This document shows positions 288-13,291 of a DNA stretch of 64,000 nucleotides, in pieces. The stretch is from NCBI GenBank assembly GCA_002718895.1, contig PBGD01000007.1, forward strand, positions 10,898 to 74,897, given 5' to 3'. The stretch comes from Flavobacteriales bacterium. GTDB taxonomy: Bacteria; Bacteroidota; Bacteroidia; Flavobacteriales; TMED113. A program made the translations under genes and the position numbers. Under the pieces are notes generated by a model. That model worked only from the letters and a program-made list of their open reading frames with translations, was not told the DNA's origin and did no database searches. Each line of letters begins with the position of its first letter. The stretch's first letter is position 1.

Positions 288-2405
288 TTATCGCTTAACT
301 ATTTCTATAGTTGTATCCTCTTTAAGGTCAAAAGTTAATTCAGTTTTATATATTTTTTTATTATTGATTTTAAAATAAGTAAAATTAGGACATGTTTCAT
401 CAATAATTTTTATTGTGTATTCTATTCCTGAAAAGTACTCTCCCAGAAAGTCACCCTGAAGACTTAAACTATTTAAATTAAAAGAACATTCTGACAGAAT
501 TTTAATTGTATACACGGATTTAATTTGAAAATATTTTTTTAATTGTTTTTTTATATTTTCAGGTCTTTTATTAAAAAATGTATACATCTTTTTAAGATTT
601 AATCTTTCCCATTTTTTAATTATTTTTTCATTGGTCCCAAAGTATTTTTTAGAGTCATATTTTTTAAGCAGTCGAGGCATTTCTGGCTCAATTTTTTTTT
701 GGAAATCTAATGCTGCTGAGAATATATTTTCTGGCTTTAGAAGGGTGTTTAATAGATCCATATACCTTGTCAAAAAGGTCTCCTTAATGTGGGTATTTGA
801 TAAGAAAACCAAAAACTCTTTATTAGAAGCTTCTTGCAATAAATACTCGAACATATCGTGTTCATACATATTATTTTTTTTAGACCCGATTCCTGCATCT
901 AAATCAACTAATAAGTATTTCCATTTTGTGTTTTTTTCTGAATTCCAGAACATAGAGTTATTAGGAATCCAATCTAGGTTTGCAGCATAAGTTTGCGTAA
1001 TATAGTAGTCAGTCCAATTTTTTATATCAAAATGACCTATAGCTCTTTCAGTTTCTAAAGGAGAATTTTTAATTGATAATTTCTTTATCTTTTCCCTAAG
1101 CTCAATGTATGATTTATTGTTGCCAATTATTTCTACGCCCCATAGTTTTAATAATGAATAATTATCGTCTCTACCAAAAGACTCTTCAAAATATGTTTTG
1201 TTGTATCTTTCTCTAAGATGTAATAAACCATAATACTCTCCATTAATAAAAACAACACATGGTTGTGCTGCTTGAAAATCTACATTAATTTTAGGGCCTA
1301 AATAATTCTGAAAAAAGGCGTCTCTAAAATGAACTTTCAATGCATCTTGTCCTGAGTTTCGAAGTATAATTTCTGAAAATTCATCACTTTTTTTATTCTT
1401 AAATGGTTGAAATTTAAAATTATCATTTTTATTATTTGCAATGAGCCTAATTGATTTTAGGGCACTTGTTTTTGAATAATTGCCGTGAATTTTAATTTTA
1501 ACCTTTTCTTTTAAAAGAGCTTTTTTGTCTTCATTAAAGTATTCGGCAAACGCTGCAAGTTTTATGTTTTTCCAGTAATTAGCGCCTTTATAAGGGAATG
1601 TGTCTTCTGCAGAAAACCCTTTTTTCATAATGCCAATTGTATCATTCCAAATAGAATTACTATCTGCAATTATAGAGACTATAGGTAGTTGGGTTTTTTC
1701 ATTAACAAATAATGATAAGTGCTTGTTTTTACTTTCAAATTCTCCTACAATAAACTTGGCTTTTATAGTGATATTTTCTTTCACTATTAAGCTGTCTTTA
1801 AATTGCTCTGAGTTTTTGTTTGGATTCGATCCATCTGTTGTAAAATACATTGGAATGCTAGATAAAGTTGGATCTATTTTTAGAGTTACAGAATTATTAT
1901 AAAATCCTGATTCTAAATTGAATTTAGGTTTTTTTAATCTTACAATACTTGCATTATTAGTTTTTCCCATACTTCTAGATGACATTGGAACAATCAGTTT
2001 ATTCCCATCTGGGAATCTTCCACAGTATGGTCTATTATTCAATTTTTTTAAATGAAAATCATCAACAATTTCGCCATTAATATTGAGTTGAATACTTATT
2101 TCTTTGGAATTAGTGGGAGTATCTACTTTTGCAAAAAACCAATCTTTCGCTTTTAATTTTGTTAACTCTTCAAGTATTATTTTTTTTGAATTTATTAATA
2201 TAAAAGCAGAGTCAATATTAATATCAAAATTACGAGAATTGAATATTTCTATATATTCTAATTGATTTGGAATTTCTTCAATAAATGATAATTCATTTAT
2301 AAAAACACCGTAGTGATTCTGAGAAAATTTATTGGTGTTTTTTTTAGTTCCTATTGTACAACTACATATTAAAATACATATAATAAACACGTAACATCCC
2401 CTCAT
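288..2405 (-). CDS. CotH kinase family protein with lamin-tail-like and chitobiase/Fn3-associated domains; probable lipoprotein
   Basis: N-terminal hydrophobic stretch ending LICSC. LTD-like INEL...EYIEIFN...GRFPDG. CHB_HEX_C-like FNLESGFY...YFTTDGSNP. CotH motifs KIHGNYS, LRNSGQD, NLDWIPNN, LVDLDAG. Confidence 0.85.
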   Translation of the reverse strand: MRGCYVFIICILICSCTIGTKKNTNKFSQNHYGVFINELSFIEEIPNQLEYIEIFNSRNFDINIDSAFILINSKKIILEELTKLKAKDWFFAKVDTPTNSKEISIQLNINGEIVDDFHLKKLNNRPYCGRFPDGNKLIVPMSSRSMGKTNNASIVRLKKPKFNLESGFYNNSVTLKIDPTLSSIPMYFTTDGSNPNKNSEQFKDSLIVKENITIKAKFIVGEFESKNKHLSLFVNEKTQLPIVSIIADSNSIWNDTIGIMKKGFSAEDTFPYKGANYWKNIKLAAFAEYFNEDKKALLKEKVKIKIHGNYSKTSALKSIRLIANNKNDNFKFQPFKNKKSDEFSEIILRNSGQDALKVHFRDAFFQNYLGPKINVDFQAAQPCVVFINGEYYGLLHLRERYNKTYFEESFGRDDNYSLLKLWGVEIIGNNKSYIELREKIKKLSIKNSPLETERAIGHFDIKNWTDYYITQTYAANLDWIPNNSMFWNSEKNTKWKYLLVDLDAGIGSKKNNMYEHDMFEYLLQEASNKEFLVFLSNTHIKETFLTRYMDLLNTLLKPENIFSAALDFQKKIEPEMPRLLKKYDSKKYFGTNEKIIKKWERLNLKKMYTFFNKRPENIKKQLKKYFQIKSVYTIKILSECSFNLNSLSLQGDFLGEYFSGIEYTIKIIDETCPNFTYFKINNKKIYKTELTFDLKEDTTIEIVKR

Positions 2406-5032
2406 GATCTAATCATTTTTTTAACAATTATTATTAAAAACATTATTAATAGAATATAACTTAAACCTTTATATTTATTAGAATTCTGCACAGAATTTAT
2501 TAAATAATTTGGGCCAATTATTTCAAATTTTTTATGTGAATTATCTAATTCTGAAACCGTAATGTTTTCAATATTTAGTTTTTCGTTTGGAAATAAAATG
2601 CGTTGATTTACACAATTCCAAATGATTTTTTTATTATCAAATATTTGTAAACCCTTTAAATCAATTGGGTACGGTGCATTTGATGTTAGGTATATGCTTG
2701 TCCCATTTTTTTCAGTAAATAATTTATATGGAAATTTCTTATTAGCTTTAATAAATTCAACATGTTTATTGACAAAAGTATTATTAAACATTTCATTTTC
2801 TGATACCGCACTTACAAGATTAGGATTTTCAATAATTATAGGATGAGCATTATTTATGTAGTAATTATTATTTAATTTAATCATACCACTTCCCTCTATC
2901 CCTACTCCTTTTTTGCAAGTCACAATAAGATTATTCTTCACCTGATTATTCATGGATGTGCTATCAATAGTCAACGAAATCCCTTTATCTTTAGAATTAA
3001 TAATTGTATTATTAAACACCTGTATTTGCTTGCCCCAATTCAGGTCAATACCATCATCTGCAGAATTAGTAATAAAGTTATTGTATATTTTAAGATCTTG
3101 ACATTTAGTTCCTTCAATAGCATCAGCTATTCCAATAATTGTATTTTTACTAACATCACCAGAGCAGTCTAACATAAGTACACCTTCACCTGAATTATTT
3201 TCAAAATAATTATTTATTATTGTAACAGGACAATGGTTGAAGCTCACAGACTCTCTGACAAAATTATCAGTGGCTTTACATTTTATCATTTTTGCTTCTC
3301 CTCTTATTTGGCGAATTATAGATTTCCATTTTACTTGTGAAAAATCACAGTATTCTAATTCTAGATCTCCTTCAGAATATATTCCTGACCAAAATAATTC
3401 TTCTCTATGACATTGAATCTTAATAAGATTATTTTTATCACCATGTATTTTTAAACTACCGTAATTTAAAATCTGGCAATTTGGATAAACATAAATCTCA
3501 CTTTTCCCTTTAACAATTAATTTGCCAGATTTTTCAATTTTGAGGTCTTGAGGAATTACAATTACTTTATTTTCAAGAACAACCTTGTCATTAATAGTCC
3601 CTGTTAAGAAGTGTGCTTCTCCGACATTAAAAAAACTTCTTGTGTTGTGACCATTTGTTTTAGTCTGGCCATTTACGGCATTTATGTGCCAATAGTATTT
3701 CCCTTTGGGCAAAGAATATTTGAAAAAAGTATCTCTAATATTTTTAAATATATAAGTTTCTTTATTATCAAATAATTTACTTTCACTTATTTTCAAGTCA
3801 TATGAATTACATTTTTCATTTCCCACATAAGAGTTCCCCCAGGTTAATAAAATGGTGTCTTTAAAATGTTGGTTATAATTATTATACATTAAAAATGGTG
3901 TGGGGGTATTATTAATTTGATTTTTAACCTCTTTTGGTCGATTTATTATATAATTTTTAATTTTTTTAATTTCTTTTTCCCATTGTTTAAAGGAATTTAC
4001 CTGGTCCGTTGTATCAAGATCTATATATTGATCTAAAGTAATTTTAAGTGAATCAATAATTGGATAAAGTACTTCTGGATTAAAAATATTTTCAGATATA
4101 TTTTCAATTTCTTTTTTAATATCTTCAAAAATAACAGGATGTAAAAAAAGTTTTTTAATTAATGGGTTTTCTGGCATAGCCCCAGAAGACAAATTACTCC
4201 ACGAGCAATAATCATATCTTAAAAACTCATTATATGAACTCATAGTTTTATCTAGGTCCCAAGGCAAGTAATACCATTTATTATCATCAATTATGTTGTG
4301 ATATAAAAAGTAATTATGATAGTAAGTGCTACCATTGCCAATTAATATATTTAGAGCAACAGATGATATCAAGTTTTGATAATTAAATTTATCTTTTATA
4401 AACTCACGATATCTATATATCGGTGTATAATTGATTTGATCAATTAATTGCTTAAGATCTTGATTTCCCCAATTTATATTATTTTTTTTTTGCCAATAAT
4501 AGTCCGCATCATCATACATTGACAAATTTGCATAATCTTTGCTAGCTTTATATAAGTTGCCATATGAACTTAAATTATTCCTTAATAGAAAACTATCATC
4601 TACATTTTCTACGTCTAAATAAATTCCTAAAAATTCGTCATTTAAAAATACAGCTTTGTGGGAGCAAGAAAACACAGGCACACTTATCATACTGTATAGT
4701 TGTGATGATAGTTGTTGGTGCATATATGATTTATCTAAATAGTCTGCATTTAGATTAATACTTTTATTTCCACTTTCAGTGGAAAATTTTATTTTAAGTG
4801 ACTTTTTGTTAAATTTTCTTGATGAACTACCTCTAACCCTTACTTTTGAGTTGTACTTTCCTCCGTCATACTGCAACTCACAGTTTATGTAATTATCATC
4901 TAAATAATTTAAGTAAATACCATTAAAATCTTCTGAATCACAATAAACAAATACCGAATCAATTTGTGAGCTAATTAAGTAGTTTGTAAAAAATAAAAAC
5001 ACAAAAATTATTCTTTTTAAATTTCGAGTCAT
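2402..5032 (-). CDS. CotH kinase family protein with Fn3-like and right-handed beta-helix domains and a C-terminal membrane anchor
   Basis: Signal peptide. CotH motifs KVRVRGSSSR.F.KKSLKIKF, LNADYLDKS, YYHNYFLY, YLPWDLDK. Beta-helix repeats (NSADDGIDL, NSKDKGISL). Ends in hydrophobic SYILLIMFLIIIV followed by KKMIRS. Confidence 0.85.
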   Translation of the reverse strand: MTRNLKRIIFVFLFFTNYLISSQIDSVFVYCDSEDFNGIYLNYLDDNYINCELQYDGGKYNSKVRVRGSSSRKFNKKSLKIKFSTESGNKSINLNADYLDKSYMHQQLSSQLYSMISVPVFSCSHKAVFLNDEFLGIYLDVENVDDSFLLRNNLSSYGNLYKASKDYANLSMYDDADYYWQKKNNINWGNQDLKQLIDQINYTPIYRYREFIKDKFNYQNLISSVALNILIGNGSTYYHNYFLYHNIIDDNKWYYLPWDLDKTMSSYNEFLRYDYCSWSNLSSGAMPENPLIKKLFLHPVIFEDIKKEIENISENIFNPEVLYPIIDSLKITLDQYIDLDTTDQVNSFKQWEKEIKKIKNYIINRPKEVKNQINNTPTPFLMYNNYNQHFKDTILLTWGNSYVGNEKCNSYDLKISESKLFDNKETYIFKNIRDTFFKYSLPKGKYYWHINAVNGQTKTNGHNTRSFFNVGEAHFLTGTINDKVVLENKVIVIPQDLKIEKSGKLIVKGKSEIYVYPNCQILNYGSLKIHGDKNNLIKIQCHREELFWSGIYSEGDLELEYCDFSQVKWKSIIRQIRGEAKMIKCKATDNFVRESVSFNHCPVTIINNYFENNSGEGVLMLDCSGDVSKNTIIGIADAIEGTKCQDLKIYNNFITNSADDGIDLNWGKQIQVFNNTIINSKDKGISLTIDSTSMNNQVKNNLIVTCKKGVGIEGSGMIKLNNNYYINNAHPIIIENPNLVSAVSENEMFNNTFVNKHVEFIKANKKFPYKLFTEKNGTSIYLTSNAPYPIDLKGLQIFDNKKIIWNCVNQRILFPNEKLNIENITVSELDNSHKKFEIIGPNYLINSVQNSNKYKGLSYILLIMFLIIIVKKMIRS

Positions 5033-5039
5033 TTTTTCA

Positions 5040-6977
5040 TTATTTAATTAAATACTTTTTCTCAATAGAACCATCATCATAAATTTCTAAATAAAAGCCT
5101 TTGGTTTTTGTTCTAATATTTCCAGGAACATCAATTACACTAATTAACTTTTTAAAATATAGCCTATTGTCATTTGTTTTTAATAAATCTAATTCAAATA
5201 AATTGGAGAATGAAAGGCATCCATTACTATCAATATATGAAACTGAATATGATCCATTTTGTAGTGGTATATAATTAAATTGATTAGCGCCATTAATACT
5301 GTCTCCATTTAAAAACCATTGATAACTCATCATGGACGATTCAGTATACAATGTAGATGAAGAGAAATTAATAGAAGCATTACTAGTTGGATAAAATTCA
5401 ACATTTGTAATAATTACACTATCACAACCAACAGGATTATATAAAGAGTCAATATATACACCTTCTTGAGTATATGTTGAATTTAATACAAATGCTGTAT
5501 CGCCTTCACAAATTGAATTATAAATATAATTAGTTTCATCTGAACACATCAACCCCTTAGCGACATTAATTGAGTATGGATATAAAGCAATATTAACAGT
5601 GCCAGTATCTTTCAATGTTTGTATATAATCATTTCCATCAATTACATCATATAAAGAGTCAGAATAACTTTTTTCCCAAAATACATTATTGCTATTTGAA
5701 AGCATATCGTCAACCGACACTATAATAGTATCTTCTGAAATATTTGTTAAAATAATAGACCCTTCTTGTGTTATCTCGTTTTCAAATCGCCAACCAAATA
5801 ATGTAGGATATTCAACAATTCTTGGCACACCATTATTATTAAAGAAGGTTACAGTATCCATTAAATTAATTGGTGTTTTGATTCTAGTAGCTTTTGATTT
5901 GTCAATTTTGACTTTATTCCATATTGAGGCAAAAACACCAGTAGCTCGTTTTCTATAATTATTTTGTGTATCTAGAGCATCCCAATTTTCAAAAATTCCA
6001 CCAATATTAAACATGCTAATGTCTTCAACCAATTTATTATTTAAAAATAATTGATGAGATGCGCTAAACATTAAAACTAAGCTCCATCTATTTCGGAATC
6101 GGTGATCAGAAGTATTATCCGTAATACCGTATCCAACCCAAAGTTCATAAGGCTGCAAATTCGTTGTTGTATCTTGAAATCCACGTACGGATTCATAAGT
6201 AGGGATTTGATCAAAAGCATATGCTAATAATTGCTTAGTGGTAAACAATGTGTCGGCACCTTTAAGGTAGAAAAATGCAGACCACCTAAATGCATCTGCT
6301 GGATTAGTCATATTATACAAGGCTTCATTCCAATACTGTGCCCTAGGGTTAGAAGCACCAAAGTTTCCAGCTGAAACCGCAATTTTAGTGTTTGGTAGAA
6401 ATGAACGAATAGAGTCAATATAAATATCACAAGTCGCGGCATAATCTTCAGCAGTAGGAAAATGACTAATGCTGTGTGTGTTTCCAGATTTTCCCATTTC
6501 ATCTCCTAGTCTAATTCGTTCAATTGAAACACCATTATTTTTGGCAGAATGTAAACTTTCAAGTTGAGAAGTAATACTACTGCTAATCATATTTAAGCAA
6601 TACAAACCTTCAGCATTCACTTGATTTAATGCATTTTGAAAATTTTCAGGAGTTATGTCAATAACTGTAGCATTTGCTTGACCCCAAGTTAATTGAATAG
6701 AATCAACACAGCAAGTATCTAAAAAAGATTGAGGGTAAAACCATCCATTGTCCCAATCCCATAAATCTGGAGATGGTGGGTAAGCTAATACGTCAGGAAA
6801 CATAGTAGCAACGGAGTCAACAAAAACACTATCCACCCATGATGGACCCCTCCAAGTTTGACCACCAAAATTAGCTGTTGGAATTGATCTATTAAAAGTA
6901 TCTAACTCAAGAATAAATTGTTGCGGAAAAATAAAAGAGCTTAATGAAATAAAAAATATAAATAAAAATTTATTCAT
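5040..6977 (-). CDS. Secreted GH-A clan-like (GH79/GH51-like) barrel protein with a short T9SS-like C-terminal tail
   Basis: Signal peptide. LAYP..PDLWDWDNGW, LNMISS, IRLGDE and ELWVGY resemble clan GH-A strand motifs. GCDS-type Ig-like segment. Tail IDVPG...EIYDDGSIEKKYLIK. Confidence 0.6.
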   Translation of the reverse strand: MNKFLFIFFISLSSFIFPQQFILELDTFNRSIPTANFGGQTWRGPSWVDSVFVDSVATMFPDVLAYPPSPDLWDWDNGWFYPQSFLDTCCVDSIQLTWGQANATVIDITPENFQNALNQVNAEGLYCLNMISSSITSQLESLHSAKNNGVSIERIRLGDEMGKSGNTHSISHFPTAEDYAATCDIYIDSIRSFLPNTKIAVSAGNFGASNPRAQYWNEALYNMTNPADAFRWSAFFYLKGADTLFTTKQLLAYAFDQIPTYESVRGFQDTTTNLQPYELWVGYGITDNTSDHRFRNRWSLVLMFSASHQLFLNNKLVEDISMFNIGGIFENWDALDTQNNYRKRATGVFASIWNKVKIDKSKATRIKTPINLMDTVTFFNNNGVPRIVEYPTLFGWRFENEITQEGSIILTNISEDTIIVSVDDMLSNSNNVFWEKSYSDSLYDVIDGNDYIQTLKDTGTVNIALYPYSINVAKGLMCSDETNYIYNSICEGDTAFVLNSTYTQEGVYIDSLYNPVGCDSVIITNVEFYPTSNASINFSSSTLYTESSMMSYQWFLNGDSINGANQFNYIPLQNGSYSVSYIDSNGCLSFSNLFELDLLKTNDNRLYFKKLISVIDVPGNIRTKTKGFYLEIYDDGSIEKKYLIK

Positions 6978-9142: not shown

Positions 9143-9787
9143 TCACTCATCATTTGGGTTAAGACAAACCATAACCATCGTAATAGCAAATACACATTCC
9201 CACAGTTCTGCGACCCTAGGAATTTGTAATATATTTAAAACTATACTCATTATTAAAAAAACAACACTATACTCCAATTTTGGTATAGGTATACTATATT
9301 TTAAGAATATATTATTAATCGAATTATATTTTTTGTGTATTACAGGTGTAAATAAAAAGTAAACAGACAAAACTGCAACTAATAGATAGGTAAAAATCCA
9401 TTTATTAAGCTTTATTCCATTAATATTTAAATTATGAATATTAGTTTCACTTTGCAGGTTGTTGTCGAGAAAAAAATCTGGTGAACTAATATTAAATATC
9501 CTTTGTCCCCAGGATATCTCTTCAGCAAAGCCAAAAAACAAAATCAAACCCATAATGATCAGTCCTGTTTTTTGAGATAATTTTAATTGTTGCCTTCTTT
9601 TGACAAAAGATTTAAATAATATACAAGAAGCAATTAACAATGCAATAGCAGAGATGTATTCAATAGATCCATCTTCTTTTACAATTTCGGCATATATAGT
9701 TGGATTGATAAAGTACATGCTTGTGCACGTACATATAATTATCATGCAAATACAATAAAATCTAAAAGAAATCAAAAAACTAATCAT
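9143..9787 (-). CDS. Conserved-looking multi-pass membrane protein of unknown function
   Basis: About 5-6 hydrophobic helices; polar motifs KEDGSIE and EEISWGQRIF...NLQSETNIHNL. Confidence 0.7.
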   Translation of the reverse strand: MISFLISFRFYCICMIIICTCTSMYFINPTIYAEIVKEDGSIEYISAIALLIASCILFKSFVKRRQQLKLSQKTGLIIMGLILFFGFAEEISWGQRIFNISSPDFFLDNNLQSETNIHNLNINGIKLNKWIFTYLLVAVLSVYFLFTPVIHKKYNSINNIFLKYSIPIPKLEYSVVFLIMSIVLNILQIPRVAELWECVFAITMVMVCLNPNDE

Positions 9788-9790
9788 TTT

Positions 9791-10216
9791 TTAATGACTA
9801 TGTCCGTGTCCGTGTCCGTGTCCGTGTCCGTGTCCGTGTCCGTGTTCATGTGAATGTAATTTTTTAATATCACTTTCGACATTTTCATACAAACTATATT
9901 CTAATTTACCGCCCAAAAATTTTGCTATTAAAACACCCTCTTTATTATAGTATTCTTCTTTTTTCGGAGCATGGTCATAACAATAATACTTAAGTTGACC
10001 ATTTTTATAATACTCTTTAATAAAATTCGATTTTTTGTTTTTTTCTATACGAATTTGACCGTTTTTAAAAAAAGACTTTGAACTTATTTCTTGATTTTTT
10101 TCGTAAGTAACTTCAAGTTTAATATCGCCATTTCTATAGTATGTTTTTTCTATCGATTGTGACAATAAACTAGATAAAGTCAACAAGGTCATTGATAAGA
10201 AACAATAAATTTTCAT
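9791..10216 (-). CDS. Exported MORN-variant-repeat (YwqK-like) protein with a His-rich C-terminal tail
   Basis: Signal peptide; repeats YYRNGDIK, FFKNGQIR, YYKNGQLK, YYNKEG; tail HSHE(HG)7HSH. Confidence 0.75.
   Translation of the reverse strand: MKIYCFLSMTLLTLSSLLSQSIEKTYYRNGDIKLEVTYEKNQEISSKSFFKNGQIRIEKNKKSNFIKEYYKNGQLKYYCYDHAPKKEEYYNKEGVLIAKFLGGKLEYSLYENVESDIKKLHSHEHGHGHGHGHGHGHGHSH
9801..9842. repeat. Perfect hexanucleotide tandem repeat (TGTCCG)7
   Basis: Seven consecutive tgtccg units read directly; encodes (HG)7 on the minus strand. Confidence 0.97.
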
Positions 10217-10260
10217 TTTATAAAATAAAAACTATAGAGCTGTTAATATTATAAAAATTA

Positions 10261-11517
10261 CTATTCAATAATGTATTTTTTGTCCACAGTGCCATCATCA
10301 TAGATTTCAAATTTAAATGATTTATTGGCATTATCTCTACCCATTAAATCTATCCATTGTATTATTGATTTAGTGTTTGGTTTTTCTATTATATTACTAG
10401 AACTGCAACAAGAACACATTACATCGGGATCTCCCCATTGAGAGCCGGTAGAATTAAAGTTAGTAAATCCGTTGTTTGCATAATCTAAACACCATTCACA
10501 CCATGAGTTTTGGTTTGGTCCCCCATTAGGATCAGATACAGGCCATGCATTGTATGTGTCACAACCAAAATCACACCAATCTTGACAATCAACCAAAGAT
10601 GTATATGTTCCACTTCCATCACCTGGGTCGGTACATTCATAGCCATTTGTTGTTGTGTTTAATTTACAACTCCAAGTGGCTGGTGGTGGAGGGCAACAAT
10701 CACACATTACATCGGGATCTCCCCAATTCACACCATTAGGATTAAAGTTGGGATAGTAGAATGAATTTGGGTTTTGATAATCTATACACCATTCACACCA
10801 TGAATTTTGATTTGGTCCACCGTTAGGGTCAGATGTTGGCCATGAACTATATGTATTACATTGACACAATTGATCTAGGGTGATGATTATTGAAGAATTT
10901 GCTACTGCTTCACAGTCAGCTAATGAAGAATACTGTCCACTTCCATCTCCTGGATCTGAGCACTCATAATAAGCAGCTTGCGGATTTATCGTGATACACC
11001 AGCTTGGTGTTGGAGTAGGAGTGCAGCAATCGCAAGACACATCAGGATCAGGACCCCAAGTAGCTCCGGTTGCATTAAAGTTAGTAAATCCGTTATTTGC
11101 ATAGTCTACACACCATTCACACCATGAATTTTGATTTGGTCCACCATTAGGATCAGATGCAGGCCAAGTATCATATGTATCGCAAAGATCACAAATAGGT
11201 TCACAATCCGATAAACAGCAGTATTGACCACTTCCGTCTCCTGGATCTACACATCCATCTGGTGTACAGTTGTAGCTTTCAGTCTGATTATTATCACAAC
11301 ATTCGCAAGAAACATCAGGATCAGGACCCCAAGTGGCTCCAGTTGCATTAAAATTTTGGAAATTATTGTTAGCGTAATCTACACACCACTCACACCATGA
11401 ATTTTGGTTTGGTCCACCATTGGGATCAGATGCAGGCCAAGTAGAATATAGCGAGCAGTCTTGAGAAAATGATGAAAAAGAGATGAGTATTCCAATAAAA
11501 AATAAGATGTGTTTCAT
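10261..11517 (-). CDS. Secreted cysteine-rich repeat protein with a short T9SS-like C-terminal tail
   Basis: Start moved to the ATG at 11517 (MKHILFF...SFSQ signal peptide) because a promoter box overlaps the TTG at 11544. Four ~54-aa modules alternate with three DPGDGSG modules. Tail IDLMGR...EIYDDGTVDKKYIIE. Confidence 0.85.
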   Translation of the reverse strand: MKHILFFIGILISFSSFSQDCSLYSTWPASDPNGGPNQNSWCEWCVDYANNNFQNFNATGATWGPDPDVSCECCDNNQTESYNCTPDGCVDPGDGSGQYCCLSDCEPICDLCDTYDTWPASDPNGGPNQNSWCEWCVDYANNGFTNFNATGATWGPDPDVSCDCCTPTPTPSWCITINPQAAYYECSDPGDGSGQYSSLADCEAVANSSIIITLDQLCQCNTYSSWPTSDPNGGPNQNSWCEWCIDYQNPNSFYYPNFNPNGVNWGDPDVMCDCCPPPPATWSCKLNTTTNGYECTDPGDGSGTYTSLVDCQDWCDFGCDTYNAWPVSDPNGGPNQNSWCEWCLDYANNGFTNFNSTGSQWGDPDVMCSCCSSSNIIEKPNTKSIIQWIDLMGRDNANKSFKFEIYDDGTVDKKYIIE

Positions 11518-11541: not shown

Positions 11542-11549
11542 CAAAGGTA
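11542..11549 (-). promoter_or_regulatory. Bacteroidota -7 promoter element (TACCTTTG)
   Basis: Reverse complement of caaaggta, 24 bp upstream of ATG 11517. Confidence 0.65.
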
Positions 11550-11557
11550 CAAATTAT

Positions 11558-13291
11558 TTATTTGTTAAAGATTTTGCGCACAGAGCCATCATGCATAATT
11601 TCAAGATATAATCCTTTTTCTACAGTAGATCTTCCTAATAAATCAATTCTTTTAATTACATGAGATGTATTTAATTCTTCAATTGACAATGGAGTTTCAT
11701 CACATGCATCACCATAGCCATCACCATCAGAATCAGCTTGATCAGGGTTATAATCCCAGTAACAATTGTCACATGCATTACCAACACCATCATCGTCATT
11801 ATCAGATTGAGTAATGTTATAATTTTGATAGCAATTATCACATGCATTACCATAACCATCGCCATCGCTATCTGATTGACTTATGTTATAATCATCAACA
11901 CAGTTATCAACTTCATCTAGAATACCATCTCCATCAGCATCAGCAAACGGAGCACCACACTCATATTCTAGAGTTTCACAATTTGAATTTAAGCAACTAC
12001 TATTTAACTTAGGTATCAAAACCTGTGACTTTACAATTGGATGAAACTCGAAATATAAATCTGCAAGGCTAGTTACATGACAATAACTCATTATAGTTCC
12101 ATATTCGTAAGTAGAATTTAAAAATAACCCATCAGGGTTGCCGTAGCAACTATCATCAGGGTCAAATAAGCTTCCATACATATTGCAGTTATCTATTGCT
12201 CCACCAGGAAAATCATAATTTGCATCAGCATTCCAAACACAATCATGGGTGTGATTAGCACCAATATTGTGACCCAGTTCATGAGATACTACCATAAAAT
12301 GCCACGAATAAAAATTACTAAATGGTTGAGATAAATAATTATAATTAATAGTTGTACCTAGTCCTCCAGTTACGGCATAACCCCATTGATTTGAGCAAAG
12401 TACATCTAATTCAGCAAGTCCGCCGCCCACACTTTTTCTAGTAAATAAATGTGCAATATCTCGCTCTACCTGAGTAAATTGAGATGGCCACTGCCAAGTA
12501 TCTTCAAATGCATTTAGATATTCGTACATGTCATCATTTAGCTCATTGTACGGACCAGGTGTTTCCCATACATGCACATAACTAGCTTGAACAATTGCAT
12601 CTAACTCAGACGTGTATATTTCACTAACACCAGTTAAAATAGCTAGTGCCCATTCAACAGCATCTTCGCAACTATAATCAAATTCACTATAGGTGTAGAA
12701 GTCAATTTCAACAGCCATATTTAAACATAGTTGGTTACCACTTCGTTCATTTGAATTATGAAAATCTATATTTTGAGGTGTATTATCGCTTGTTTTTGTG
12801 TGGCAATTAAAATTAAAATCAGCAATCGTATCAGACATGTCCACAAGAGCATAATGATTATTCTCTATGTGGACAATTTCATAAACTTTACCATCTTTTT
12901 TCAATACACCAATTAATACATTTTTATAGATTGATAAACTCCCAGAAATTTGGGTTTTTCCTAAAACTCGATAAGAAATTGTTTTAGGGACGTAATCTTC
13001 CTCCTTATAACCTGTATCAGTTGTCCTACCTAATTTGAAACTTTGAGTGTAAGCTTCAAAATAATTTAACTCAAGTGTTAAGGATGTATTATTGAAAAAA
13101 GGTATTTGTACAGTCTTATAGCAAGGTTGAAAATTTGTTAAACTATCAATTAATTCTAGGTTTATATCTAAATAAATGGTGTTTTTAGCTTGATTAGTCA
13201 AAGGTTCTCCCGCTATGTCAGATAATATAAAAATATCTGATTGGCTTAAGCAAATGAAAGGGATGAGAATAATGAATAAAATTTTTTTCAC
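11558..13291 (-). CDS. Secreted M12 (reprolysin-like) zinc metalloprotease with thrombospondin type-3 repeats and a short T9SS-like tail
   Basis: HELGHNIGANH (HExxHxxGxxH), Met-turn TIMSY, repeats DxDGDGxxDxCDNC, tail IDLLGR...EIMHDGSVRKIFNK; GTG start. Confidence 0.9.
   Translation of the reverse strand: MKKILFIILIPFICLSQSDIFILSDIAGEPLTNQAKNTIYLDINLELIDSLTNFQPCYKTVQIPFFNNTSLTLELNYFEAYTQSFKLGRTTDTGYKEEDYVPKTISYRVLGKTQISGSLSIYKNVLIGVLKKDGKVYEIVHIENNHYALVDMSDTIADFNFNCHTKTSDNTPQNIDFHNSNERSGNQLCLNMAVEIDFYTYSEFDYSCEDAVEWALAILTGVSEIYTSELDAIVQASYVHVWETPGPYNELNDDMYEYLNAFEDTWQWPSQFTQVERDIAHLFTRKSVGGGLAELDVLCSNQWGYAVTGGLGTTINYNYLSQPFSNFYSWHFMVVSHELGHNIGANHTHDCVWNADANYDFPGGAIDNCNMYGSLFDPDDSCYGNPDGLFLNSTYEYGTIMSYCHVTSLADLYFEFHPIVKSQVLIPKLNSSCLNSNCETLEYECGAPFADADGDGILDEVDNCVDDYNISQSDSDGDGYGNACDNCYQNYNITQSDNDDDGVGNACDNCYWDYNPDQADSDGDGYGDACDETPLSIEELNTSHVIKRIDLLGRSTVEKGLYLEIMHDGSVRKIFNK

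Follow-up and report, generated by a model that had tools for sequence, protein, structure and literature searches.

A putative exported protein of a marine Flavobacteriales genome built from a very rare tryptophan- and cysteine-rich module and a bead also found in viral contigs

Gene and module layout

The window analysed here is a stretch of 64,000 nucleotides from the genome of a Flavobacteriales bacterium (GenBank assembly GCA_002718895.1, contig PBGD01000007.1, positions 10,898 to 74,897 of the forward strand), and the subject of this work, hereafter the target, is a cysteine-rich protein encoded on its minus strand. The open reading frame (ORF) occupies window positions 10261-11517, stop codon included, and gives a protein of 418 amino acids (aa) when read from an ATG. 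An alternative TTG start lies 27 nt (nine codons) upstream of the ATG and would give 427 aa; the ATG form opens with MKHILFFIG..., a signal-peptide-like N-terminus that matches those of the related proteins P0003, P0004 and P0006. The 418-aa protein contains 38 Cys and 20 Trp residues, and its commonest residues are Asn, Asp, Cys, Ser, Pro and Gly. A preliminary description, made from the DNA alone, had divided it into two alternating modules in the order A-B-A-B-A-B-A-tail, and module mapping reproduces this architecture: along the chain the modules carry 6, 6, 6, 4, 6, 4 and 6 Cys, which sum to 38. Every count is even, with six Cys in each A and six, four and four in the B copies, as had been described. 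The layout is a signal peptide, A, B-A, B-A, B-A and a C-terminal tag, with the following features (E values are from a hidden Markov model (HMM) of A and from profiles of B and the tag).

10261..11517, minus strand: whole gene, protein P0001, 418 aa plus stop; homologues found, ratio of nonsynonymous to synonymous substitution rates (dN/dS) below 1
11461..11517, minus strand: signal-peptide-like N-terminus, aa 1-19 (MKHILFFIGILISFSSFSQ), read by eye
11296..11457, minus strand: module A1, aa 21-74, 6 Cys, mature N-terminus; HMM E 4e-29
11191..11277, minus strand: module B1, aa 81-109, 6-Cys variant with YCCLSDC; profile E 1.3e-14
11023..11184, minus strand: module A2, aa 112-165, 6 Cys; HMM E 1e-29
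11005..11022, minus strand: Pro/Thr linker TPTPTP, aa 166-171
10864..11007, minus strand: module B2, aa 171-218, 4 Cys, long variant; profile E 1.5e-13
10693..10860, minus strand: module A3, aa 220-275, 6 Cys, SFYY-insertion subtype; HMM match
10678..10692, minus strand: Pro linker PPPPA, aa 276-280
10573..10677, minus strand: module B3, aa 281-315, 4 Cys; profile E 1.6e-11
10405..10563, minus strand: module A4, aa 319-371, 6 Cys; HMM E 2.4e-31
10264..10386, minus strand: short C-terminal sorting-type tag, aa 378-418 (...IDLMGRDNANKSFKFEIYDDGTVDKKYIIE); profile E 1.9e-23

Judged by eye, the signal peptide would be cleaved after SFS, and no lipobox is present in this N-terminus. The extra vicinal CC of B1 is present also in P0008 and at locus L017, and the long form of B2 results from a 16-residue insertion before the fourth (last) Cys, with a similar long variant in P0003 and P0004. 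The residues after A4 form a 47-residue tail, the last 41 of which are the tag. B is joined tightly to the A that follows, the final Cys of the one and the first Cys of the other being separated by one to three residues. The flexible linkers come after A, with TPTPTP behind A2 and PPPP behind A3, in agreement with the Pro-rich linkers reported earlier after two A modules. Thus, the natural repeating unit is B-A, and the protein consists of one A, three B-A units and the tail.

The module region (aa 20-371) contains 47 Asp and Glu residues and only one Lys or Arg, and the Cys spacing of A is C-x20-C-x2-C-x24/27-C-x-CC, with a CEWC and a CxCC motif in each copy. Such a composition could be read as that of an extracellular sequestration device for metals or Ca2+, in which CxxC, CxCC and acidic loops bind cations and the Cys residues are not in disulfides. 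The recurrence of both Cys motifs in every A module and the extreme acidity would suit this function, as would the downstream gene (9791-10216), whose product ends in a His-Gly tail typical of metal binding. However, the Cys count is even in every module, the location would be extracellular and oxidising, Cys residues are gained or lost in pairs among variant modules (e.g., the extra CC in B1), and no metal-binding family was matched. We consider metal sequestration very unlikely.

Conservation, relatives and distribution of the modules

The 16-residue core SDPNGGPNQNSWCEWC is the same in all four A copies, and 5 of its 16 codons differ synonymously, which bears out the invariance with silent codon changes that had been noticed at first. 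Among whole A copies, dN/dS ranges from 0.09 to 0.32 and dS from 0.64 to saturation (Nei-Gojobori), and Tandem Repeats Finder detected no DNA-level repeat in the gene. Low dN/dS, high dS and the absence of a DNA repeat together indicate that the A copies duplicated long ago and have been conserved as protein sequence. The HMM of A matches the four copies at E values of 2e-31 to 4e-29, far past chance. In a tree of 40 distinct A modules, clustering follows position across orthologues: the A1 modules of three proteins, for example, fall together, and a clade supported at 98/94 unites the SFYY-insertion subtype. The duplications are therefore older than the divergence of the orthologues, and the A copies are ancient duplicates under purifying selection, products of neither recent amplification nor gene conversion. 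Purifying selection, also proposed in the preliminary description, is further supported by two full-length orthologues from ENA assemblies, which are 72% and 70% identical to the target and have the same A-B-A-B-A-B-A-tail layout. Over 15 sequences, 20 of the 53 columns of A are invariant, including four Trp, Tyr28, Phe36 and several Asp, Asn, Pro and Gly positions, and the invariant core is maintained in the 40 distinct modules. Identity to the first alignment row is 57-85% for A and 31-86% for B.

Neither module was recognised at first reading, and database searches give the same picture. The target belongs to no Pfam, NCBIfam or PHROGs family, the only trace being a stray, sub-threshold match to PF04717 (16.8 bits). 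Searched separately against Pfam to E 10, 15 A modules gave one stray match to NinD (E 0.046) and 23 B modules gave none; profiles of A and B against PDB sequences gave nothing below E 0.3; and in nine A- or B-rich homologues the Pfam matches were limited to their other domains. In the ESM Atlas, the best match of the target, against unnamed clusters, scored 0.85, below the level at which matches were counted, and A alone gave no usable match. The two modules are absent from the literature found by full-text motif-word and keyword searches; a preprint on a diatom adhesive is unrelated. Profile comparison indicates no relationship between A and B (hhalign probability 0.2%).

Candidate families of small disulfide-rich domains were also considered. 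The carbohydrate-binding modules (CBMs) CBM1, CBM14 (peritrophin-A) and CBM18 (hevein) are secreted domains of 35-70 residues with two to four disulfides and conserved aromatic residues, often in tandem. Module A is similar to them in general design, but it has no sequence similarity to them, its Cys spacing is unlike the patterns known for these families, and no Pfam CBM matched the target or the separate modules. None of the 23 B modules matched the Kunitz/BPTI inhibitor family (PF00014), even at E 10. Over 11 residues, B in its C-terminal half weakly resembles the end of a Kunitz-type toxin chain (PDB 2kcr), which is not significant (E 2.8).

Module A is very rare. Its 53-position profile, scored against 1,835,955,588 representatives with E values up to 0.001, returned 20 proteins, of which 13 contain a true A (twelve near-full-length matches and one fragment). 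The remaining seven are large proteins whose repeats match A only in part, the partial scores adding up over the repeats; according to Pfam they comprise three NHL-repeat proteins, two FG-GAP_3 proteins, one fn3/phosphatase protein and one CARDB protein. A word-based protein search found A in 15 of its 39 matches, and 241 million metagenome records contained it at seven loci. It was found neither in 40 relatives nor in the 15 other genomes of the family, a pattern scan of the contigs of GTDB species genomes gave no match, and none of three pattern matches in viral contigs was confirmed. All A-bearing contigs have a guanine-plus-cytosine (GC) content of 27-31%.

The partial matches provide a lead to the fold of A. 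Its centre aligns with NHL repeats over 19 columns (hhalign probability 66%; 0.1% for a reversed control) and with FG-GAP_3-type repeats over 21 columns (94%), probabilities that are inflated by the choice of the compared proteins from the match list of the A profile itself; the identities of these proteins were confirmed by Pfam. In the NHL alignment (PF01436), the segment EWC-x-DY-x-NN-x-F-x-NFN-x2-G of A corresponds to the strand-turn-strand core iWVaD-x2-NNRVq-x-FN-x2-G, and in the FG-GAP-like alignment (PF13517) the centre of A matches W-x-IDYA-x-NGFG-x-W. The likeness spans only about 20 of the 53 positions, and PF01436 and PF13517 gave no match to A at E 10. Unlike propeller blades, A is a single six-Cys unit that forms no multi-blade ring and is separated from the next copy by B modules and linkers. 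The alignments hint that A may contain a propeller-blade-like β-meander, with no sign of family membership. A bolder interpretation would make A an autonomous mini-domain, namely a blade derived from NHL or FG-GAP repeats, held by three disulfides, recent in one streamlined clade, and used as a portable glycan- or Ca2+-binding unit on cargo of a type IX secretion system (T9SS). We regard this reading as decidedly unlikely. If true, it would be a documented case of a blade of a repeat protein becoming an independently folding domain, and would offer a new small binding scaffold.

The proteins that contain A fall into several architectures. A signal peptide, A/B modules and a tag are all that is present in the target, P0003, P0004, P0006, P0007, P0008, P0041, P0047 and L014. 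In P0010, P0011, P0013-P0015, P0046 and L012, an FG-GAP propeller is followed by B-A and then a tag; P0009 and P0012 have a long N-terminal region (SdrD-like) before B-B-B-A; and P0051 has an N-terminal domain of unknown type before A-B-B and a C-terminal domain (CTD). A occurs without B in P0016 (ENA, 422 aa), where it occupies residues 135-187 of a GldB-like protein whose GldB-like region, residues 233-422, matches PF25594 at E 8.6e-41; here A is used in an envelope protein outside the context of an A/B array. Among 44 distinct A contexts, a B that fits the pattern stands directly before A in 25, and A directly follows the signal peptide in nine (counted by eye).

B is a 29-residue, four-Cys bead with the consensus S-x-N-C-T-x3-C-x-DPGDGSG-x-Y-x-SL-x2-C-E-x2-C. 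It is present in 38 of the 39 matches of the first protein search (by regular expression) and co-occurs with PKD domains, an M43 peptidase, a C70-like peptidase, FG-GAP propellers and a phage virion protein. A 29-position profile found it in 70 of 301 sampled genomes of the order, concentrated in small-genome families (41/42, 20/21, 3/15, 3/17 and 1/2), and in none of 250 sampled genomes from the rest of the phylum. In addition, 94 stretches of IMG/VR viral contigs were confirmed to contain B, and one of seven scanned B-bearing phage ORFs has a Hoc-like head-decoration region. On sequence evidence, the bead is common to ocean phages and the cargo of Flavobacteriales. The preliminary description had called the disulfide density of the target rare in bacteria; the counts of B in genomes of the order and in viral contigs do not support this. 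High disulfide density appears to be normal for the secretome of this lineage, and rarity is limited to module A.

B-bearing viral loci were listed from L028 to L105 (e.g., L081, 2433-5750; L036, 3213-5633; L092), and some of their ORFs are very large and Cys-rich, with an open frame of up to 3364 aa and 188 Cys.

In GTDB genomes, B typically lies directly before the canonical T9SS domain of otherwise unrelated proteins (plastocyanin-like, CBM48-like and others). The only other B of the source genome follows this pattern: it is flanked by a CBM48-like region and a canonical T9SS tail within a protein of 583 aa, whose gene is directly upstream of a GH16 glycoside hydrolase gene (locus L022, contig C10; 1243-2991 and 171-1253, both on the minus strand). 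Several copies of a Cys-bracketed motif, GCTD-x2-A-x-NY-x3-A-x2-DDGSC, are visible by eye in the same 583-aa protein. In other cargo of marine Flavobacteriales and in virion proteins of ocean phages, the bead occurs singly or in tandem, mostly before a sorting domain, and has the consensus found here. The target differs from these proteins in that B alternates with A, whereas elsewhere B forms B-only arrays, and in the extra vicinal Cys pair of B1 and the 16-residue insertion of B2.

These contexts raise the possibility that the protein is a passive structural element, with A and B as rigid, disulfide-stapled spacer beads of a surface coat or stalk that has no specific ligand. Two observations would be expected of such an element: in proteins with FG-GAP propellers, and in others, B-A units link the N-terminal domain to the tag, and B recurs as a pre-tag bead in many unrelated proteins. 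On the other hand, a stalk would have nothing to carry in the target and at least seven relatives, which lack a 'head' domain, A is far more conserved than B and many of its invariant positions are polar loop residues, and A also occurs without B in the GldB-like P0016. We judge a purely structural role somewhat unlikely.

The C-terminal tag and the genomic setting

The tag comprises about 40 residues with the consensus K-x-iI-x2-iDilGR-x4-K-x-F-x-L-x-IYDDGSVEKKYl, and its profile detects it at 22 places in the source genome. Three tagged proteins are encoded in the window, all on the minus strand: the target (tag at 10264-10386), a protease (11561-11683) and, at its C-terminus, the ORF at 5040-6977. 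Within the order, the tag was found in 59 of 151 genomes and is confined to small-genome families, with 1-43 copies in each genome; the frequencies in the five families are 14/14, 2/2, 14/14, 14/14 and 13/14. Homologous A/B architectures swap the tag for the canonical PF18962 domain, which is carried by P0007, P0008, P0013 and P0020; the short tag is carried by P0009, P0010, P0011, P0026 and P0036. Of the T9SS itself, the source genome encodes SprA (556 bits) and GldM, and it has 36 canonical PF18962 tails that score above the cut-off. The tag itself does not qualify as the CTD of T9SS type A cargo (PF18962/TIGR04183), which has about 70-80 residues.

A closer parallel comes from Prevotella intermedia, whose short CTDs are reported to be cleaved, glycosylated T9SS signals (Open Biol 2025, PMC11969387). 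These CTDs and the tag share a length of about 40 residues, a position at the protein end, a distribution over many unrelated exported proteins and an origin in T9SS-bearing Bacteroidota. By eye, both show a conserved Gly followed by a basic residue, another conserved Gly shortly after it and basic residues at the terminus, and the tag resembles the short CTDs also in being interchangeable with the long PF18962 domain in homologues. Its mapping onto sequence motifs B, D and E of that paper was made by eye. The tag is thus likely, not proven, to be a cut-down T9SS sorting signal.

The source assembly is 1.34 Mb in size, 84.6% complete and 29% GC, and its MetRS is 70% identical to those of 'Flavobacteriales bacterium TMED191' and other marine Flavobacteriales metagenome-assembled genomes. 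The GC content at third codon positions is 0.248 in the target gene and 0.18-0.24 in its neighbours, a closeness that indicates native codon use; the raised total GC of the gene (0.39) is due to second codon positions, i.e., to amino-acid composition. At least half of the sampled words of the gene are present in two runs labelled marine metagenome. In addition, three metatranscriptome runs, which belong to two studies, yielded contigs that map to the gene at 98.8-100% identity; these cover 11054-11299 (three differences) and 10236-10386 (no differences), and one contig represents a module-order variant. Runs with only a small share of the words (X3-X17) were not counted as evidence, and parts of the mapped region that lack contigs in the RNA runs carry no information.

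Immediately upstream of the target ORF, in the short spacer that separates it from the next gene, lies one further feature:

11542..11549, minus strand: TACCTTTG, candidate -7 promoter word, 24 nt upstream of the target ATG, in the 40-nt spacer

This word fits TAnnTTTG, the -7 promoter word of Bacteroidota. The window shows no excess of TAnnTTTG (112 occurrences against an expected 123.6), and TACCTTTG is a lead only that may be a chance match. Scans for sigma-70 promoters (30 found, 26.4 in shuffles) and terminators (2 found, 1.8 in shuffles) were not above shuffled sequence.

The target gene is part of a same-strand run of genes for exported or envelope proteins, which encode two CotH-like proteins, a 645-aa tagged protein, a patatin-like protein, an acyltransferase, a membrane protein, a MORN-like protein, the target and a protease. 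The downstream gene (9791-10216, minus strand) encodes a small exported protein with MORN_2-like repeats (27 bits, narrowly short of the cut-off) and the His-Gly repeat tail HSHEHGHGHGHGHGHGHGHSH. A spike in depth at 9755-9905 consists of unrelated contigs that match the His-Gly repeat DNA of this gene. At 288-6977 (minus strand), two CotH-like proteins, one with a right-handed β-helix, are encoded beside the 645-aa tagged protein (5040-6977), which has no relative in Pfam, NCBIfam or PDB. At locus L017 (692-4450), a B-A-B-A gene has an orthologue of the 645-aa protein (73% identity) as its neighbour and lies near a CotH-like gene, which indicates that the region is loosely conserved.

Forty nucleotides upstream of the target, on the same strand, is the gene for an M12B-like zinc protease (11558-13291) with thrombospondin-type repeats and the tag. 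The thrombospondin type 3 repeat, TSP_3 (PF02412), matches this protease at E 9.7e-4 without reaching its cut-off, and matches come also from NCBIfam models of thrombospondin repeats; the target is matched by none of them. The nearest family relatives of the protease are proteins of about 1000 aa with 38-44% identity, and it is a lineage-specific paralogue.

The proximity of the two genes suggests that the target might be a multi-headed inhibitor of this protease, both being exported with the same tag. The genes are neighbours with the same orientation, and secreted protease inhibitors are usually built as tandem arrays of small disulfide-rich modules; the non-significant resemblance of B to the Kunitz-type toxin 2kcr, noted above, and a Kunitz-labelled Atlas cluster at 0.81, below the counting level, point faintly in the same direction. 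However, adjacency of a protease to an A-bearing gene was not seen at other loci: no M12B protease was recognised by eye beside the A genes at L012, L015, L017 and L018, and the A-gene neighbours at L013 and L014 are only an MsrA-like gene and a gene fragment. Fusions of A involve propellers and a GldB-like protein, not proteases, and the neighbouring protease is a lineage-specific paralogue only distantly similar to its family relatives. An inhibitory function is therefore most improbable.

Proposed role at the cell surface

We tentatively favour a different role, possible rather than probable on present sequence evidence: the T9SS would export the target, a strongly acidic, multivalent binding protein of the surface, in which A would bind and B would serve as spacer. 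In the proposed pathway, the N-terminal signal peptide would direct Sec export, and oxidation in the periplasm would form up to 19 disulfides, with each module closing on itself, as the even Cys counts suggest. The C-terminal tag of about 40 residues would then direct passage through the T9SS, followed by attachment to the surface or release. Outside the cell, the four A modules would bind a ligand of repeating structure, for which a glycan or polysaccharide surface is the most plausible candidate, perhaps with Ca2+ taking part; one A would stand at the mature N-terminal tip and the others would be spaced by B beads and Pro/Thr linkers, with B acting as a generic spacer bead.

Several pieces of evidence suggest that A could be the binding unit: (i) Several members of the family have no other candidate functional domain. 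(ii) A is located at the mature tip. (iii) A is much more conserved than B, and the conserved positions include polar loop residues and the four Trp. (iv) The module region is highly acidic, as described above. The assignment of B as a spacer is based on its position directly before the sorting domain of unrelated proteins. That the target is exported is suggested by its signal-peptide-like N-terminus, the recurring tag, the swap between tag and PF18962, and the presence of SprA, GldM and 36 canonical tails in the genome; the first two of these also support the earlier proposal of a secreted modular protein.

Other observations weigh against the proposed role. In small disulfide domains, conserved Trp residues often form the core. 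In the larger relatives, B-A takes the stalk position between the N-terminal domain and the tag, which suits a passive spacer equally well. Transcription of the target gene is only weakly hinted at by the metatranscriptome contigs, since RNA libraries can contain DNA. As for the export route, PF18962 and TIGR04183 miss the target and eight tags even at E 10, and a comparison of 11 tags with the 28 best canonical tails of the source genome gave an hhalign probability of 3%, so that homology is undetectable. Furthermore, neither PorV (NF033710) nor the PorU sortase (NF033707) was found over its cut-off in the 84.6%-complete assembly. PorV is over the cut-off in 10 of the 15 other genomes of the family, and we therefore ascribe the missing PorV and PorU to a likely gap in the assembly.

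Modular, Cys-rich cargo of the T9SS type is a familiar design; module A, in contrast, is a new and very rare sequence family. The target gene unites three uncatalogued parts, namely the rare Trp/Cys module A, the phage-shared bead B and the 40-residue tag. The small-genome Flavobacteriales of the ocean are abundant and uncultured, and much of their exported proteome is made from uncatalogued parts, so that marine secretomes would be better annotated once A, B and the tag are defined. Should A prove to be only a spacer, the target would be a modular surface protein of an ordinary kind that uses a new building block. If A does bind a ligand, it would represent a compact, disulfide-stabilised scaffold and provide a handle on what these bacteria attach to.

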